Origin: Myxococcales bacterium | GTDB taxonomy: Bacteria > Myxococcota_A > UBA9042 | Length of the DNA stretch: 47,421 bases | Direction of reading: 5' to 3' | Assembly: GCA_009692425.1 (NCBI GenBank) | Contig: SHZF01000035.1 | Coordinates: 1 to 47,421 of the forward strand | Shown here: in pieces, positions 38,440 to 47,421 of the stretch | How the letters are laid out: each line of letters starts with the position of its first letter | Numbering within the stretch: the stretch's first letter is position 1 | The notes under the pieces: model-generated | Databases searched by the model: none | Told to the model about the DNA's origin: nothing | The model's input: only the letters and a program-made list of their open reading frames with translations | Translations under genes and position numbers: made by a program

Positions 38440-39514
38440 CTCATACCAAATCCCTTGAATTCGGCTCGGTGCTCGCTCGCCCGCGACGGCTGCGGATGCG
38501 TTGTTCAGGCTCGAAATCCTCCTGCTATTCTATCGCCTTCGCGCCTTGCCTCGCTCGCCGCGTTTGTCGGGAGCCCTCGATCCGATTCGGCGGGCTTTGG
38601 TATCACCCGGGGAAGCTGCCGAGACGGAGACTGAGCCTGAAACGGGGGGTGAGGCGGCTGGGACGCAAGATGTCTGGCGTATTTTCAGTGCGTTGTGATC
38701 TGGCACGGATGTTGCATGAGGATTCTGTGCCGCGCGGACCGATGCGCGGTGACTGCCAGCGGACGCGCGCTCCGGAGGTGGTCGGGTTGCTGCCAGTCGC
38801 GGGGGTCGAGAGGCTCCCGTGGCGAAGGAAGGGCGGGACCGGCGCAAGCCGGCTGGACCCGCGAAGGTGGTGATCTACCTGTTTCTTACAGGAGATCGGC
38901 GGGGAGGGCCATTTTGACGGGGCAGGAGGGCCCCGTCGGGGCCGGGAAACAGATCCAATCCAAACCCAGCAGCATCGGATTGCGGGATTGTGACGAACAC
39001 GACGATCGCGGCAAACCGTGAAGGCAGAGGAATGGCGCGCGGCACGTGGTGCGATGGCCTCGCGACCCGCTAGCACGGAGCCCCGGATCGAGCCCACTTA
39101 ACCCACCACTCGCCACCGCTCGCCATCGCCCATTTCTCCCACACTCTGCCGCCGCCGCGCGACGCCGGCACCGGGCTGCACCCGATGACGATCGGCGGTC
39201 TGTTCTACTGGGTCCTCGACAACCACACCGGTTTGATCGACGACTGGGACCGCTCCCGCCACCGGCGCTGGGGCCATTGTCGCCGCGCGCCCTGCCCCTA
39301 CGACGACCCGGCCCTGGCCAGGCCCGCCATCGACCGGCCATTCGTCTGCGACCGTCCTTGCTGTGCCGAACACAAGCGCAAGGTGCAGTGGCCGTCCTTG
39401 CTGCGCGCGGGCTGGCGCCGGTCCGGGCTGCCGGCCGCCGGGACTTCGTTGCCCGCACGCGACACGTCGTGTAAGGTTCTCGACCTGCGACGACGCACGC
39501 ACGCGGAACTCTCC
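38440..39514. other. ~1.1-kb apparently non-coding region (no convincing ORF on either strand) upstream of the Cys-rich lipoprotein gene; candidate long 5' leader or ncRNA
   Basis: All six-frame ORFs here are short, Arg/Pro-rich and overlap one another. GC is somewhat lower than the flanks. No known riboswitch signature recognised. Confidence 0.4.
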
Positions 39515-41851
39515 ATGCAACCTGGGGTACCCACACTGGCCCGCGCTCTCGGCTCGCTGCTGGCCACTGGGCTGGTCGGGTGCTTGCAGAATCCCCCCGC
39601 CAGTCAGGGTGCGCCGGTTGCGCCGCAGGCTGACGTGGATGCCACGGCAAAAGCCAAGGACACCGCGGCCCCGGCGACCCCCACCGACGCCACCGACACC
39701 GCCACCAGCGAGGGTGATGTCGGCGACGTCGCGGCCGACGCCGAATCTGACCTCGATACCGCAGCGGGCCCTGAGGATGCCTACACCGGACCGGCGTGCA
39801 CCACCTCGTCGGCCTGCAAGAACATGATTGGGCTACTTTATTGCGCCGTTCCGCTCAAGCAGTGCGTGGAGTGCCTGTTCGACTTCCAATGCGCCGCCAC
39901 CGGTCATTGCGGTCAGAACAAGTGCACCGTCTTCTCGTGCGTCCCCGGCGCCACCTGGTGCGACGGACCGTTCCTGGCTACCTGCAGCCCGGACGGCAAA
40001 TCGACGACCAGCCAGGAGTGCTTGGCCGCGACCCCGGTCTGCAACGAGGGAAAATGCAAGGCGTGCGAACCCAACGCCACGTTCTGCGCACCGCCGGCAG
40101 ACGGCGGGGCCTCGCTGGCAGTGCGGAAGTGCGATGCGACGGGGGACGCGTCCTCGCTGGTCAAGACCTGCGAGGGCGAGGCCACCTGCAAGGGCAAGCA
40201 ATGCCTGGTGTGCGTGCCGGGCACCAAGGTGTGCGTGGGCGGCGTCGCGAAATCGTGCGCGGCCGACGGTGGCGGCTTCGACGCCGGCCTCGACTGCGGG
40301 GCCAATGGCTTGACCTGCGTGGGCGGCCAATGCACCCAGGCCTGCGGCGAGGACATCAAGAACAACTCCAACGTCGGCTGCGACTACTGGGCCGTCGATC
40401 TCGACAATGCCTTCGAGGCATCCGGCGGCAAGGTCTACGACGCCCAGAATGCCCAGTTCGCGGTCATCGTGTCGAACACTTCGCAGACCCCGGCGCTGGT
40501 GACCGTGTCGCTGGGTGCCGCCGCCGCGGCCGCGACTTCCAAGACCTGGTCGGTGCCGCCCAAAGGCCTGCAGGTCATCAATCTGCCCGACCCGGCTTGG
40601 GGCGTCCCCAACCAGAGTCAAGAGGGGAGCGACGTGAACAGCCGCGTGTTCCGCATTCACGCCACCCAGCCCATCGTCGCCTACCAGTTCAACCCGCTGC
40701 AGAACGTCGGCGTCTTCAGCAACGACGCAAGCTTGTTGTTGCCGACGGGCGCACTCGGCGAGGAATACTGGGTGGCCAGCCACGCCCAGTTGGGCAACCA
40801 CCGCAGCTACTTCACGGTCGTGGCGGCGACGCCGGGCACGACCACGGTCCAGGTGATTGCGGCGGCGCCGACGCTGGCGGGCCCAGGCGTGCCGGCGCTG
40901 ACCGTGGGCGCCAAGCAGACCTTCAGCCTGCAGCAAGGACAGGTCCTGAACATCGAATCCAACAAGGATAAGGCCGACCTAACGGGTTCCTGGGTCAAGG
41001 CGAACAAGCCGGTCGCGGTGTTCGGCGGCTCGGAAGCGTCGATTTCGCCCGAGATCGGCAACTGCATCAACAACCCGCTGGGCACGCCGCCCAAGGTCTG
41101 CGCGGTCACCAGCGGCACCATTCCCTGCACCAAGGACTCCGACTGTCCGCCCAGTTGCTGCGCCGACCACCTGGAAGAACAGCTGTTTCCGGTCAAGGCC
41201 TGGGGCAAGACCTATGTCGGCGCCCGCCTGTCGCCGCGCGGCAAGGAGCAGGACGCCTGGCGCATCGTCGCGGCCGAGAACGGCACCCAAGTCAAGCTGA
41301 CGCCCGACATCGGCATCACCCTACCGACACTGAACCAAGGCGCGTTTTTCCAATTCCAGACCACCAAGGACTTCCTGCTCGAGGCCGACAAGCCGGTCAT
41401 GCTCGCGCAGTATATGGCGAGTTCGTTCTCGACCATGACATCTGCGAACGCCACCTGTACCAACAGCGCGATGTGCAAGAGCCAATACGGCTTCCTCGCC
41501 ACCTGCGAGGGCACCGGCGCCACCAAGTCGTGCGGGCCCATCGGCGACCCGTCGCTCATCCTGAACATCGCCACCAGCCAGTACCTCGACGAGTACCTCT
41601 TCCTCGTGCCCGACAAGTATGCGCTCAACTACATCACGGTCATTGCGCCGCAAGCCACGGCGGTCAAGCTCGACGGGTCGTCTTTGGGCGCCGCTGCGTT
41701 CGTGCCCGTGCCCGACACGATGTGGCAGGTCGCGCGTCTGCCGATCGGAGCCGGCACCCACACGCTCGTGGGCAGCAAGAAAGTCGCCCTGTTCGTGTAC
41801 GGGTACGACGACGACGTGAGCTACGGCTATCCGGGCGGCGCGGGGTTGTAG
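39515..41851 (+). CDS. Large secreted lipoprotein (778 aa) with N-terminal Cys-rich repeat modules and a beta-rich C-terminal domain
   Basis: Lipobox LLATGLVGCLQNP. Acidic linker. At least seven C-x(n)-C modules (CKNMIGLLYCAVPLKQCVECLFDFQCAATGHCGQNKCTVFSCVPGATWC..., KCKACEPNATFC, CKGKQCLVCVPGTKVCVGG, CGANGLTCVGGQCTQAC). Then a ~500-aa Cys-poor domain ending ...VALFVYGYDDDVSYGYPGGAGL. Start trimmed to ATG 39515. Confidence 0.55.
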   Translation: MQPGVPTLARALGSLLATGLVGCLQNPPASQGAPVAPQADVDATAKAKDTAAPATPTDATDTATSEGDVGDVAADAESDLDTAAGPEDAYTGPACTTSSACKNMIGLLYCAVPLKQCVECLFDFQCAATGHCGQNKCTVFSCVPGATWCDGPFLATCSPDGKSTTSQECLAATPVCNEGKCKACEPNATFCAPPADGGASLAVRKCDATGDASSLVKTCEGEATCKGKQCLVCVPGTKVCVGGVAKSCAADGGGFDAGLDCGANGLTCVGGQCTQACGEDIKNNSNVGCDYWAVDLDNAFEASGGKVYDAQNAQFAVIVSNTSQTPALVTVSLGAAAAAATSKTWSVPPKGLQVINLPDPAWGVPNQSQEGSDVNSRVFRIHATQPIVAYQFNPLQNVGVFSNDASLLLPTGALGEEYWVASHAQLGNHRSYFTVVAATPGTTTVQVIAAAPTLAGPGVPALTVGAKQTFSLQQGQVLNIESNKDKADLTGSWVKANKPVAVFGGSEASISPEIGNCINNPLGTPPKVCAVTSGTIPCTKDSDCPPSCCADHLEEQLFPVKAWGKTYVGARLSPRGKEQDAWRIVAAENGTQVKLTPDIGITLPTLNQGAFFQFQTTKDFLLEADKPVMLAQYMASSFSTMTSANATCTNSAMCKSQYGFLATCEGTGATKSCGPIGDPSLILNIATSQYLDEYLFLVPDKYALNYITVIAPQATAVKLDGSSLGAAAFVPVPDTMWQVARLPIGAGTHTLVGSKKVALFVYGYDDDVSYGYPGGAGL

Positions 41852-41856
41852 CGCAC

Positions 41857-41890
41857 GGCCGGCACGTTGCACTGGCCGTTGTCGTTCAGC
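41857..41890 (+). terminator. Weak candidate terminator after the Cys-rich lipoprotein gene
   Basis: cggcc-(13 nt)-ggccg hairpin followed by ttgtcgttc. Low stem quality. Confidence 0.2.
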
Positions 41891-41987
41891 CCCCAGCACA
41901 GCGCCTTGCCCGCCGCGGTGGCGGCGCAGGTGAAGTCGCCCGCGAGGTCATCGCCGCAGTCCACGACAAGGCGCATATCGAACGCCG

Positions 41988-42327
41988 CTTGCCTCACCTC
42001 GGGCTGTGGCCCGACGCCCACGACATCGTGGCGATTCGCGGACCGCCCGACGACTTCGCCGCGCCAGACAACGAACCCGGCGCGCAATGGGACGGGATCG
42101 ACGAACTGGAGTCGCTGTCGTGGGCGGCGTGAGGCCCGCCTGACCGAATCCGCCGGTGATGTTCGGGCGCAGTGGCTCGGCTGGGCGGCCGCGATCCGCT
42201 CGACAAGACGCAAACGTGTGTTGACGAGGGCTTTTGGCGGCCGCAGACTCGACCTCGGGCGGCTCACGGGCGGCTCCGGAGCCGCAGCCAGGCGGTGGGA
42301 CGGCAGGGCGATGGGGCATTGCGTGTC
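41988..42327 (+). repeat. Direct repeat copy 1 (part I 41988-42130, 158-bp unique insert, part II 42288-42327) flanking the SLOG gene
   Basis: tcacctcgggctgtggcccgacgcccacgacatcgtggcgattcgcggaccgcccgacgacttcgccgcgccagacaacgaacccggcgcgcaatgggacgggatcgacgaactggagtcgctgtcgtgggcggcg, then later aggcggtgggacggcagggcgatggggcattgcgtgtct. ~90% identical to 42825-43029. Confidence 0.8.
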
Positions 42328-42441
42328 TTGCGTTCTCTGTCGCGGAGCAGCCACGTTGCCGTCACCACACCCTGGGCCCCTGCTCGCAGTAGAAGCAGCC
42401 ATGTGCGGGACGTGTTGCTCCGGTCGCCATTGGAATGCGTC

Positions 42442-42813
42442 ATGAAGCTCGCCGTCGTCGGGTCGCGCACGTTCTGCAACCGCGCCCTCCTCTTCGAGCG
42501 CCTCGCGGCGTACTTGGAGGCGCACCCCGTCACGTCGATCGTCTCAGGTGGCGCGGCGGGCGCCGACGCGCTGGCAGAGGAGGTGGCGCGCGAGTTCGGG
42601 CTGCCGTGCACGGTGGTGCGTGCCGAGTGGGACCAATTCGGCCGGGCTGCCGGCCCGCTTCGCAACGCCCGCATTGCAGGAATGGCCGACGCCGTGCTGG
42701 CGTTCATCGACAAGCCGCTGGCCGAGTCGGCGGGCACCCGGGACACCGTGCGGCGGTTCCTCAAGGTGGGCAAGCCGGTCGAGGTCGTCGCGGCAGTCCA
42801 AGACAAGGCGTAA
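42442..42813 (+). CDS. SLOG-superfamily protein (DprA-like Rossmann fold; YspA/DUF2493-like), 123 aa
   Basis: MKLAVVGSRTFCNRALLFERLAAYLEAHPVTSIVSGGAAGADALAEEVAREFGLPCTVVRAEWDQFGRAAGPLRNARIAGMADAVLAF: (V/I)VGSR...(I/V)VSGGAxGAD...AGP.RN... is the SLOG/DprA-type signature. Typical size of DUF2493 proteins. Confidence 0.5.
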   Translation: MKLAVVGSRTFCNRALLFERLAAYLEAHPVTSIVSGGAAGADALAEEVAREFGLPCTVVRAEWDQFGRAAGPLRNARIAGMADAVLAFIDKPLAESAGTRDTVRRFLKVGKPVEVVAAVQDKA

Positions 42814-42824
42814 ATCGAGCGATT

Positions 42825-43029
42825 CTTGCGTCACCTCTGGCTGTGGCCCGACGCCGACGACATCGTGGCGATTCGCGGACCGCCCGACGCCTTCGACCCG
42901 CCAGACAACGAACCTGGCGCGCAATGGGACGGGACCGACGAGTTGGAGTCGCTGTCGTGGGCGGCTCTGGAGGGTCCGGCGCCAAAGCTAGGCGGAGGGA
43001 CGGCAGGGCGATGGGGCATTGCGTGTCTA
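42825..43029 (+). repeat. Direct repeat copy 2 flanking the SLOG gene; its 3' end overlaps the TTG start of the next ORF
   Basis: tcacctctggctgtggcccgacgccgacgacatcgtggcgattcgcggaccgcccgacgccttcgacccgccagacaacgaacctggcgcgcaatgggacgggaccgacgagttggagtcgctgtcgtgggcggc...aggcggagggacggcagggcgatggggcattgcgtgtct. Confidence 0.8.
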
Positions 43030-43657
43030 CGTTCCTTGGAGGACAGCGTGGGCGGTGACCCTGGCGCTGACCGCGGGCGCGGCGCCGGACGGCAAGTACG
43101 GCCTCGTGTTTTCGCTGTACCCGAACCAGATGTCCTCCGAGTCGCTCTGGCAGGAAGCCATGGTCGGCATCAACGTCGCCGGCGGCATGTTCAGCACGCA
43201 ATTGGGCACCAACGCCAAGAATCCGCTGACGGTGCCGCTGTTTGCCGACAACGCTGAGCTCTGGCAGGGCGTCAGCATCGATGGCGATCCAGAGTTGTCC
43301 CGGGTGCGTTTGTGGTCGGTGCCCTACGCGCTGTCCGCCGAGTACGCCAAGAAGCTGCAGTGCACCGGCTGTGTGACAGGCAAGATGCTGGCCGACAAGG
43401 CCGTCACCGCCGCCCAACTCGCCAAGGACGCGGTCATCACCGTCCACCGCCAGGACAAAGCCATCACCGCGCCCAAGATCGGCAGTTTCGCCTTCCCGAT
43501 CACCGCCGGCCCCGCGTTCCCCTGCGACGCCGCCCACCTCGGCTGGGCGTTCATCGACAAGAAGGACACGGTGCTCTACGTCTGCAACGGCAAGGATCTG
43601 CGCGCGCTTTCGGCACTGGTCCAGGTCGGCACGGTCAGCAGCCCCGGTGCCAATTGA
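43019..43657 (+). CDS. N-terminal portion of a secreted fibrinogen-like-domain protein (terminated by an in-frame TGA; possible pseudogene or readthrough)
   Basis: TTG start. Signal-peptide-like MRVYVPWRTAWAVTLALTAGAAPDG. Repetitive A(V/I)T.AQLAKDAVITVH segment. Ends ...VQVGTVSSPGAN-TGA. The downstream ORF is in the same frame. Confidence 0.4.
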   Translation: MRVYVPWRTAWAVTLALTAGAAPDGKYGLVFSLYPNQMSSESLWQEAMVGINVAGGMFSTQLGTNAKNPLTVPLFADNAELWQGVSIDGDPELSRVRLWSVPYALSAEYAKKLQCTGCVTGKMLADKAVTAAQLAKDAVITVHRQDKAITAPKIGSFAFPITAGPAFPCDAAHLGWAFIDKKDTVLYVCNGKDLRALSALVQVGTVSSPGAN

Positions 43658-43666
43658 GCGGACATC

Positions 43667-44203
43667 TTGAAGAAATCGACCGGCACCAAGAGCGGCGCGT
43701 ACTGGATCGACCCCGACGGTCCGGGCGGCATCAAGGCGTTCGAGGTCTACTGCGACATGGTCACCGACGGCGGCGGCTGGACGCTGGTGGGCCTGAACGA
43801 TGCGTCGAAGAAGCTGGCGTGGCGCATGGACGAGACATTCACTAGCCTGCACACGGTGTTCACCAGCGGCGCGACGAAACAGACCACCGTGCTGCTGGTC
43901 GGCAACTTCAAGTCGCTCGACTGGCGGCCCGGTTGCGGTACCGGCAACGGCCCAGATGGTACGGGGCCCCAGTTCTACGGCTTCAACATCCGGTCGGACG
44001 CTGACGTAACCAATCCGGGTCTTTTCAACGGATTCAAGTCGGGATGGTGCTCGGCGCTGGCAGGCTGGGGCCGCAACAACGGCAACGTCGACTACACCGC
44101 AGGCCGCATGACCTGGACCCCCAGTTTGCACCTCGCATTCAAGGCTGGGGCAATGCGTATCTACGTTCCAAAAAACGTTGTCAGACTTTTCAGCACGCGC
44201 TAA
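43667..44203 (+). CDS. Fibrinogen C-terminal-like (FReD/FBG) domain ORF, in frame with and 3 codons after the preceding ORF
   Basis: ADILKKSTGTKSGAYWIDPDGPGGIKAFEVYCDMVTDGGGWTLVGLND matches the FBG N-terminal consensus (C)xx(I/L)...G...SG.Y.I.P.......V.CDM.TDGGGWT(V/L). Its own 'start' is TTG with no RBS. The TGA at 43655-43657 occupies the position of the first conserved Cys. Confidence 0.55.
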   Translation: MKKSTGTKSGAYWIDPDGPGGIKAFEVYCDMVTDGGGWTLVGLNDASKKLAWRMDETFTSLHTVFTSGATKQTTVLLVGNFKSLDWRPGCGTGNGPDGTGPQFYGFNIRSDADVTNPGLFNGFKSGWCSALAGWGRNNGNVDYTAGRMTWTPSLHLAFKAGAMRIYVPKNVVRLFSTR

Positions 44204-44308
44204 ACTCGCGAGGCCCTGCCGACCTTCGGCATTGGGTCCTCAACGCGGAAAGGGAATCTCCACAACAGCTGAGCAAATTCGCTGCTGCAGCCGTACCGAA
44301 GTCAGCCC

Positions 44309-45400
44309 ATGTCGACCGAACATTTAACCATTTTGGTCGTCGATGACTCGCCGGACAACATCGCCATCTTGGCGGATGCGCTGGCGGATCGCTACCGCGT
44401 GCGCGCAGCGACTTCTGGCCAACACGCGTTGCGCATCTGCCGCAGCGACAATCCGCCCGCGTTGGTCTTGCTTGACATCATGATGGACGAAATGGACGGC
44501 TTTGAAGTCTGCCGTCACCTCAAAGCCGACGCGCAAACTTCAGACATTCCTGTCATTTTTGTGTCAGCTCTGTCTGACCCCGTCGACGAGGAGCGCGGCT
44601 TTGCCCTCGGCGCCGCCGACTTTATCAGCACGCCCGTCAGTGTGCCCAAGGTCCGCCATCGGGTTCAGGTTCACCTCGATTTGCGCCAGTCGCGGCGCAA
44701 GCTGTTTGAGTTGAACTCAAAGTATTTAAATTATTTGTCCCCGCAGTTGTCTAAAGCACTGCAGACGGGCATTATGAACGCGACCGTGCAAAATCGCCGC
44801 AGGCTCCTAACGGTGTTTTTTTCCGACATTGTCGGCTTTACGAGCCGTGTCGAAAAACTGGCGCCGGAAGCGTTGACCGACCTGCTCAACGGATATTTCA
44901 GCGCGATGGCCGAAATCGTGGCCAAGCACGGCGGAACGCTAGACAAGTACATTGGCGATGCCATCATGGTATTCTTCGGCGACCCCGACAGCAGAGGCGC
45001 GAGCGCCGATGCCCGCGCGTGCATCGCGATGGCCGTGGAGATGCAAGACGTCATCGAACTCATGTCCGCGGCGTGGCATGGCCACGGCATTGCTGAACCG
45101 TTCCAAGTGCGCATGGGCATTGTGACCGGTGATTGCACCGTTGGCAGCTTTGGCAGCCCGCACAAGTTGGAATATACGGCCGTTGGCAGTTCGGTGAACT
45201 TGGCGGCGCGGCTACAGGCCAACGCGTTGCCGGGCCGCATCCTGGTGTCCGCCAGCACCCATGCGGTAGTCCATGACGTGCCGCTTGGAACGGTTCAGTT
45301 CATCGCGGTCAAAGGCTTTGCTGAGCCCGTGCAAGCCTATGAAGTGTTGCGCACCGCTGGTGTCCGCCAAATTTCCAAGCCAGATTCTGGCGTCCGCTAA
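44309..45400 (+). CDS. Response-regulator receiver domain fused to a class-III adenylate/guanylate cyclase catalytic domain
   Basis: REC: [18 protein letters not shown]...[24 protein letters not shown]...IPVIFVSA (phospho-acceptor Asp in LLDIMMD). CHD: [18 protein letters not shown]...[20 protein letters not shown]...[16 protein letters not shown]...[14 protein letters not shown]. Confidence 0.85.
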
Positions 45401-45491
45401 ATTCACTCCATGCAATCCAACGCGCCCGGTCGAAAAGGCCAGAACTGGAGCACCGACCGAACGTAGGCAACGCCAGAAAGGAGCCGTACAC

Positions 45492-47421
45492 ATGAAAGTT
45501 ACTTATAAAACCGTCGCTTGGTCCTTGGCTGCCATCGCGCTCGTGGCGTCGATCGTGGTGCCTACACTTTGGGGGTTTGCCCGCATCGACGACGCGGCTT
45601 CATCGCGCAAGCACGTCTTCGGCATCATCACGCGCGTCGACGGGCTGTTGTCGTCGCTGAAAGACATGGAGACCGGCACGCGCGGTTTTGTGATCACACG
45701 CGACGAGCTATTTCTTGAGCCGTACAACAATGTGCGCGATCTGGTCCCAGGCGAGGTGGCTGAACTGCAAAAGTTGACGCAACTCCCCGACGCAAAAAAG
45801 CATATGGCGAACATCGAAGCGCTGGTGGCGGCCAAACTCGCTCAAATGGCGCAGGTCATTGAATTGGTGCGCAAGCACGACAACGCTACGGTGGTGTCGA
45901 AGATCAGCAGCGGCGAAGGCAAGCGCATTATGGATGACATTCGCGCTGAAATCGTGGCTTTCCGCAAGGTGGAAGTGGCGGCCCGCGAAGTATACGAGAC
46001 GACGTTTGAGTCCAGTTTGCGTAACGTGTTTGTGCTAGATGTGACGGCTTGCATGCTGACACTTGTGTTTGCGGGCGCATTTGCCATGCTGATCCGCCGC
46101 CAGACCCAGCAGAACCTGAAGGACCGTGAACATCAACAGACCCAGCAGATGCTCGCCACACAGCAACTGGCCAATGCGCAACTGGCCATGGCCAATGTCA
46201 CGTTGCAGCAGAGTGAGGAAAGGCTTGCGCTGACCTTGAAGGAGCAATATGCGGCGCAGGAAGCGTTGCGCGACCAGCAGTTCTACACGCGGTCGCTGAT
46301 TGAATCCAATATCGACGCCTTGATGACGACCGACGTCGCGGGTGTCATGACCGATGTCAACACGCAAATGCAGGCGCTGACCGGCTGCGACCGCCAGGCG
46401 CTCATCGGTCAGCCGTTCAAGATTTACTTCACGGAGCCCGAACGCGCGCAAGCGGGTATTGCCCTAGTGCTGGAGACAAAACGGCTTATCAACTACGAAT
46501 TGACGGCCATTGCCAAAGACGGCACGCAGACCGACGTGTCGTACAATGCCTCGACGTTTTATAATAACCAAGGCGAGTTGCAGGGCGTGTTTGCGGCTGC
46601 GCGCGACATCACGGAGCGCAAACGACTCGACGTGATTTTGGAGCAGAGCCGTGTGGCTTGTACAGCAGCCATGTTGAGCGCCGAGCACGCGAGTTTGGCC
46701 AAGTCGGAGTTCTTGTCGAGCATGAGCCATGAGATTCGCACGCCGATGAACGCCATTATTGGCATGTCGTACTTGGCGCTAAAAACCGAGTTGACACCGC
46801 GACAGCGCCATTACCTAAAGAAAATCAAAGATTCTAGCCAGCACCTGCTGGGCATCATCAATGATATTTTGGATTTTTCCAAAATTGAAGCCGGCAAGCT
46901 GACAATGGAACATGCTGAGTTTGAAATGGAAAACGTGATGAGCAATGTCGCCAATCTAATTGCCGACAAGACTGCGGCCAAAGGGCTGGAACTGGTGTTC
47001 AATCTGGACGAAAACGTGCCGCTCCAACTGATTGGCGACCCGCTGCGTTTGGGGCAAATTCTCATTAACTACAGCAACAACGCGGTTAAATTTACGGAAC
47101 ACGGTGAAGTCAACATTGCCGTTCGCGTGCACGAAGAAACGGACAAAGAAGTTGTGCTGTATTGCGCGGTACGTGACACGGGCATCGGCCTTTCACCCGA
47201 ACAGGCGGGGCGGCTGTTCCAGAGCTTTGCGCAGGCGGATGCTTCGATTACGCGCAAGTTTGGCGGCACGGGCCTAGGGCTCGCCATTTCCAAAAAGTTG
47301 GCGGAATTGATGGGCGGCGATGTCGGTGTGACCAGCGAATTGGGCAAAGGCAGCACGTTCTGGTTCACGGCGCGCTTTGGCAAGGGCGTGATGCAACAGC
47401 GCAAACGGGTGCTTTCGGTCG
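45492..47421 (+). CDS. Sensor histidine kinase (CHASE3-type periplasmic sensor, TM, coiled coil, PAS, HisKA, HATPase_c); 3'-truncated by the window end
   Basis: ATG with strong AAAGGAG RBS. N-terminal TM. CHASE3-like [25 protein letters not shown] ([21 protein letters not shown]...ITERKR). H-box [20 protein letters not shown] boxes ([30 protein letters not shown]). Lower GC than the rest of the window. Confidence 0.8.

Follow-up and report, generated by a model that had tools for sequence, protein, structure and literature searches.

A probable multi-lesion pseudogene of a secreted lectin-like family, with a stop codon in place of a conserved cysteine, in an uncultured Myxococcales genome

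The sequence considered here is a complete contig, 47,421 nt long and referred to below as the window, from a metagenome-assembled genome (MAG) designated "Myxococcales bacterium" at NCBI, with locus tags of the series EXR79_. Near its 3' end, on the forward strand, lie two open reading frames (ORFs): 43019-43657, which begins with TTG and ends with the TGA at 43655-57, and 43667-44203, which also begins with TTG and ends with TAA. Both occupy one frame (their start coordinates are each 2 mod 3), and the spacer between them consists only of TGA-GCG-GAC-ATC. An earlier, sequence-only reading had proposed that they are parts of a single gene for a fibrinogen-like protein, divided by an in-frame stop, and its coordinates and frame are confirmed. 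In the NCBI annotation each half is a hypothetical protein of its own, MSP92324.1 (200 aa, from GTG at 43055) and MSP92325.1 (179 aa, apparently from ATC at 43664).

The N-terminal half of the disrupted gene (43019..43654, +; MSP92324.1) displays same-frame homology to residues ~36-250 of intact homologues of 600-650 aa. It comprises a beta-sandwich region, about three repeats of the AVTxxKLA type and a small Cys-containing neck (C...CNG), preceded by a likely signal peptide (MRVYVPWRTAWAVTLALTAGAA) predicted from the translation. Beyond the TGA (43655..43657, +) lies the remnant of a C-terminal X-type-lectin-like domain bearing the fibrinogen-like YCDxxxxGGGW motif (43658..44104, +; part of MSP92325.1), recognized by the NCBIfam model NF040941 at 72 bits and, in its N-terminal motif, by the Pfam models COLFI and Fibrinogen_C; its homology to other proteins stops at 44104-44131. 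A search with the conceptual readthrough protein yielded 115 relatives, the best of them metagenomic proteins of Myxococcota type, 600-650 aa in length, at 360-404 bits. When intact homologues were compared with the window by tblastn, a single continuous match in one frame was obtained, running from ~43064-43076 to 44104 (to 44131 with P0003) and crossing the TGA.

Several comparisons place the stop at the first disulfide Cys of the domain, as had been suggested. In the alignment with homologues, the TGA column is occupied by Cys in 10 of 10 sequences, within the motif SC-x-DI-x-K. Among 441 instances of the YCDM...GGGW domain, drawn from 264 relatives, the upstream Cys is present in 439, and the modal spacing from this residue to the Cys of YCDM is 32 residues, identical to the spacing from the TGA to Cys245 in the window. 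NF040941 (46 positions; curated cutoff 30 bits) matches the readthrough protein, queried with Cys put in at the stop codon, at 72.2 bits, with residues 212-257 on model positions 1-46 and the TGA falling on position 2. The MAG also encodes an intact paralogue, P0015 (EXR79_05465), with SCADILKK at the point where the window has N-stop-ADILKK; the proposed single-base change holds. The domain in the window thus lacks its first disulfide Cys, codon 43655-57 being TGA. Judged from these alignments, the split is a derived state and the ancestral codon a Cys codon, most likely TGC because GC content at third codon positions (GC3) exceeds 0.8.

The stop is not the sole defect in the gene. Directly after GGGWTLV, the window copy lacks 55 residues that every homologue has, even the distant P0010 and P0013. 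The junction of this in-frame deletion of ~55 codons (TLV/GLND) lies at 43787..43792 (+), homologues having GK...FTDFMLM between the same residues. The missing core block, corresponding to alignment columns 514-569 and to residues 224-278 of P0010, is conserved throughout the homologues compared and also in animal intelectins, and aligns with XEEL, lamprey lectin and intelectin-1; its mean column identity (0.68) is close to that of the retained sequence (0.70). In the structural model of P0010, the block has predicted local distance difference test (pLDDT) values of 79-97 and forms part of strand 220-226, helices 244-247 and 266-269, and strand 272-279. At the C-terminus, the last ~46 residues of the family (...GLGAxCxGxxHQMGRHYWGYGDGC...HAFFVR, then stop) are likewise missing. 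This is the family's most conserved part (0.77), with two conserved Cys, and in its place stands a non-homologous tail (44105..44203, +) of 33 unrelated residues (RMTWTPSLHLAFKAGAMRIYVPKNVVRLFSTR, then stop). By tblastn, no remnant of either the core block or the C-terminal block was found in any frame of the window. A frameshifted C-terminus had been entertained, as WGNAYLRS in an alternative frame slightly resembles GHAFFVR, and was discarded on the same tblastn result for the C-terminal block. In addition, ~20 residues between the signal peptide and a DGKY motif may be missing. With both the 55-residue and the C-terminal ~46-residue blocks absent, the window copy does not contain a complete X-type lectin domain.

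Among the proteins searched, the resulting short architecture is confined to this contig. A HMMER search with the downstream ORF against 1.84 billion representative proteins returned 3824 relatives (representative clusters, E<=1e-3), among which only the window's own ORF (P0117) aligns in one stretch; all other relatives possessing the C-terminal part align in two, covering query residues 1-45 and 41-151, and residues 152-181, corresponding to the tail, found no match in this collection. Structure prediction is consistent with a short-form domain that would be unable to fold. The AlphaFold model of the downstream ORF, computed with an alignment of homologues, has a mean pLDDT of 46.9 and a predicted template modelling score (pTM) of 0.34, with the last 64 residues below 50, whereas the intact homologue P0010 reaches a mean pLDDT of 78.6 and mostly 80-97 in its lectin domain.

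A premature stop within a region collinear with uninterrupted homologues, accompanied by additional disabling lesions, is what a pseudogene would present. We consider the locus, with a probability of roughly 0.8, to be a recently inactivated, multi-lesion pseudogene of a secreted lectin-like family, which supports and extends the nonsense mutation already proposed. In the history we envisage, a change from TGC to TGA would have removed the first disulfide Cys and ended translation after residue 212; independently, some 55 codons of the conserved lectin core would have been lost in frame; and the last ~46 codons, including two conserved Cys and the terminal strand, would have given way to unrelated sequence at a boundary of rearrangement or of composition. 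Which way these mutations went, and in what order, is inferred. Any remaining product would be at most a truncated, secreted N-terminal fragment of 212 residues, with no functional lectin head.

The age of the inactivation can be gauged from what is retained. In the retained blocks, 62 columns show a single residue throughout the other sequences, and the window copy agrees with them at 57; the five mismatches all fall in the divergent tail. GC3 is 0.88 and 0.82 in the two gene halves. As invariant residues are kept and GC3 is still high, point-mutational decay has barely begun, which argues that the inactivation was recent.

The same features could be read in favor of present function, whether as two functional genes or as low-level UGA readthrough, through a near-cognate Trp or Cys tRNA, into a shortened lectin-like protein. 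The frame is kept across all lesions, codon bias is intact (GC3 0.82-0.88), the N-terminal ORF retains a plausible signal peptide, and NCBI lists two coding sequences, MSP92324.1 and MSP92325.1. The downstream ORF, however, lacks a signal peptide and could start only at TTG or ATC; the first disulfide Cys is missing from it, as are the 55-residue core block and the conserved C-terminal block. Most of it is predicted not to fold (pLDDT 46.9), and its architecture occurs in no other of the 1.84 billion representative proteins. We regard continued function of this kind as quite unlikely, and readthrough, which had been listed among the possible explanations, is not supported: it would yield only a domain without two conserved blocks, which renders the recoding options moot.

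Selenocysteine had also been proposed, with some reason, as a TGA exactly on a conserved Cys column is the usual signature of Sec/Cys pairs. The signals that would be expected to accompany such recoding were absent. No hairpin resembling a selenocysteine insertion sequence (SECIS) was found 3' of the UGA: folding of 43640-43730 gave z = 0.10 against 200 shuffles, the best local hairpins within ~25 nt of the UGA reach about -8 to -9 kcal/mol in a context of 65% GC, and Rfam returned no match downstream of the UGA. The window contains no tRNA genes (tRNA-Sec included) and no sel genes. Across 63 loci from other genomes, a stop occupies the Cys column in none of 72 domain copies, and the gene in the window is otherwise defective. 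We further take this Cys, on general grounds, to have a structural role, as one half of a disulfide within a secreted domain, and not to be redox-active. Replacement of the disulfide Cys by selenocysteine is almost certainly not the explanation, being contradicted by the lack of a SECIS-like hairpin and by the distribution of stops among homologues. Reassignment of the genetic code was rejected, as TGA is an ordinary stop codon here, closing 7 of the window's 17 confident genes. The only in-frame TGAs encountered among the 63 loci were in L044 and L049, from Candidatus Gracilibacteria MAG-60, about 8 residues before the Cys of YCDM (NPE-stop-NNAFEVYCDM). Gracilibacteria use genetic code 25, in which UGA encodes Gly, so that these are expected.

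A more mundane possibility is that the true codon is TGC, the TGA having entered through a mistake of consensus or assembly or from a minority allele, and that the deletions reflect mis-assembly of paralogous or strain-variant sequence. The window is an entire MAG contig, a contig assembled by Logan from run SRR8561390 diverges from it after 42674, the genome has paralogues such as P0015, and the retained parts of the gene are without substitution decay. On the other side, the repeats near the gene are imperfect (90%, 78-86% and 22/24) and hence are not the exact k-mers that prompt mis-joins; the junction of the 55-codon deletion shares only a few bases with the flanks expected from homologues; and correcting the TGA alone would leave a domain without two conserved blocks. 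An artefact of this sort is in our judgement improbable, and the lesions are more plausibly biological.

Certain observations nevertheless weigh against the interpretation of the locus as a decayed gene. No close orthologue (>65% identity) and no second assembly of the locus were found in the collections searched. The best match among GTDB representative genomes is 47% identical, the best relatives in a search of 5.8 billion proteins show about 41-63% local identity, exact-protein look-ups returned singletons only, two scans of JGI metagenome DNA gave 0 matches, and the genomic context of homologue P0002 shows no synteny with the window. As no close orthologue was found, the ancestral state has been deduced from relatives ~50-65% identical in the domain. 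The contig derives from a MAG and is contradicted by the Logan contig ~900 nt upstream, so that some assembly error or mixing of strains is possible. Apart from the TGA, the lesions are all in frame, with no frameshift, which is somewhat unusual for decay. Finally, the alignment used for the AlphaFold model of the short form was shallower than that for P0010 (17 vs 32 sequences).

The surroundings of the pseudogene are rich in repeats. A 186-nt direct repeat (41943-42128 and 42780-42965; 90% identical) bears no coding signature, the ratio of synonymous to non-synonymous differences being equal in all six frames, and an 83-nt direct repeat occurs at 42246-42328 and 42946-43028 (78-86% identical); the second copies of both (42780..43028, +) lie directly upstream of the gene. 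A shorter direct repeat of 24 nt brackets the pseudogene (TGGGGCAWTGCGTRTCTACGTTCC at 43012 and 44146; chance expectation 0 matches). Its first copy (43012..43035, +; TGGGGCATTGCGTGTCTACGTTCC) overlaps the TTG start of the gene, and the second (44146..44169, +), with two mismatches (22/24), is in the non-homologous tail at the composition break. A third, diverged copy lies at 42312-42335, ahead of a DUF2493 gene. Two further readings were considered and rejected. A diversity-generating retroelement had been suggested by AAC-rich codons near the 3' end, but the window encodes no reverse transcriptase, and with only 24 nt in common the repeats do not form a pair of the template-repeat/variable-repeat type. 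Integron attC sites or the att sites of an integrative element are not indicated for the 24-mer, which has no palindromic attC structure and no associated integrase; the "element" between its copies is the pseudogene itself. It is at best a highly speculative idea that the 24-nt repeats mark site-specific or homology-driven cassette shuffling, with the fragment as a stored or exchanged module, or that reading through the UGA serves to make a lectin-like protein of purposely reduced length.

The 3' end of the pseudogene coincides with a break in composition: GC is about 0.66-0.70 before it and 0.54-0.59 after it, while GC3 drops from 0.82-0.90 to about 0.70-0.72. Since homology to the lectin-like family ends at this same place (44104-44131), the 3' truncation falls together with a site of rearrangement, with an acquired segment or possibly with a join made in assembly; the lower-GC segment may itself be an acquired segment or a chimeric join of the contig. 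This segment (~44100-47421) encodes an adenylate/guanylate cyclase of response-regulator type (44309-45400), followed by a histidine kinase of CHASE3-PAS-HisKA-HATPase layout whose gene is cut off by the contig end. On the 5' side, the DUF2493 gene (42442-42813, +; MSP92323.1, 123 aa), of the YspA-type SLOG family, has its TAA where the second 186-nt copy starts. The Logan contig (L064 1-990) matches the window exactly as far as 42674, shows scattered single-nucleotide differences thereafter and diverges completely at 42793; in its version, the DUF2493/SLOG protein has 135 aa and a different C-terminus. That the sample yields two versions of this junction points to strain variation, a paralogue or a mis-join. 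Directly upstream of this mosaic lies a gene (39074-41851, +) for a secreted protein, large and rich in Cys, whose IgGFc_binding domain is full-length (PF17517, E = 1.7e-65), and just downstream of it, in a long antisense ORF, an orphan RCC1_2 repeat (~41872-41937, -; Pfam E = 1.4e-5, above the gathering score) that looks like a gene fragment. The remainder of the contig carries ordinary chromosomal genes, among them those for aconitase, PutA, NadE and GlgA/GlgC.

The locus belongs to a familiar class of genomic feature: it is a single degraded member of an abundant family of secreted, lectin-like proteins, in a Myxococcales bacterium known from uncultured material, and carries little biological weight in itself. 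It does indicate that MSP92324.1 and MSP92325.1 would be better annotated as a single pseudogene than as two hypothetical proteins, and that a stop at a conserved Cys should not be called selenocysteine without a SECIS element and recurrence among homologues. A broader interest may lie in the family to which the gene belonged. Its intact members have a signal peptide, an N-terminal beta-sandwich, a stalk of AVTxxKLA repeats, a small Cys-containing neck and a C-terminal X-type-lectin/fibrinogen-like head, and presumably bind glycans. Such proteins are frequent in Myxococcota as well as in other bacteria, and a dedicated NCBI model exists for the family. The view that bacterial fibrinogen-type domains are uncommon does not hold in light of that model and of the 3824 representative clusters recovered here.

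The label of fibrinogen-related domain (FReD), under which the locus was originally described, applies in part. PF00147 (Fibrinogen_C), to which alignment had been recommended as a check, did match the N-terminal motif at 31.7 bits (gathering score 22), yet only positions 4-46 of 221 align, and a match over its full ~220 residues was not obtained. PF01410 aligns similarly over positions 24-70 of 233 only. Searches against PDB, with a single homologue and with a profile of 32 homologues, instead ranked X-type lectins best, the profile matching XEEL at 1.8e-18, lamprey serum lectin at 8e-17 and intelectin-1 at about 1.5e-16 to 2.7e-16, in alignments that run through the block deleted in the window copy. 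With Foldseek, the P0010 model retrieved intelectin-1 and XEEL at the top (~315 columns, E about 4e-7, target-normalised TM about 0.5), and matched fibrinogen and ficolin domains over only ~125-150 columns. Intact homologues thus match X-type lectins in profile and in predicted fold over the whole lectin domain, and by these measures X-type lectins (intelectin, XEEL) are the nearest match of the intact family. The resemblance spans ~300 residues in P0001-P0013, P0132 and P0133, well beyond the short FReD motif captured by the Pfam and NCBIfam models. In the literature on bacterial intelectin- or fibrinogen-like proteins we found nothing specific, and no paper describing the X-type-lectin likeness of this family. 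The likeness to intelectins across the entire head of a bacterial "fibrinogen-like" family is relevant to how X-type lectins arose.

Placed beside known systems, the window copy shares with the NF040941 family the YCDM...GGGW motif and its spacing, the intact P0002 and P0133 also matching the model, and differs in having a stop for the first conserved Cys and a domain that is partly deleted and truncated beyond the motif. With canonical FReDs (PF00147: ficolins, angiopoietins, fibrinogen beta/gamma) and the C-propeptide of fibrillar collagens (PF01410), the common ground is the N-terminal subdomain, Cys...YCDM...GGGW with its disulfide; only a small part of either model is aligned, and the fold match extends over ~125-150 columns, as against ~315 for intelectins. 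The intact bacterial homologues resemble X-type lectins (intelectin-1, 4wmq/6usc; XEEL, 4wmo/5zc0; lamprey serum lectin, 7e1e) in profile and fold, and we take the terminal ...FFVR/...IYVR strand of the family to resemble the intelectin C-terminus ...LLFYR. They differ from these lectins in being multidomain proteins, with an N-terminal beta-sandwich and repeat stalk, and in an identity of only ~14-16%, while the window copy is further set apart by the loss of the block aligning to XEEL residues ~60-140 and of the C-terminal third. Like ordinary bacterial pseudogenes, it combines an in-frame stop with further lesions, an intact paralogue elsewhere in the genome (P0015) and a rearranged, repeat-rich setting; unlike them, it is without frameshifts, and its conserved residues and codon bias are undecayed, which suggests that its inactivation was very recent.

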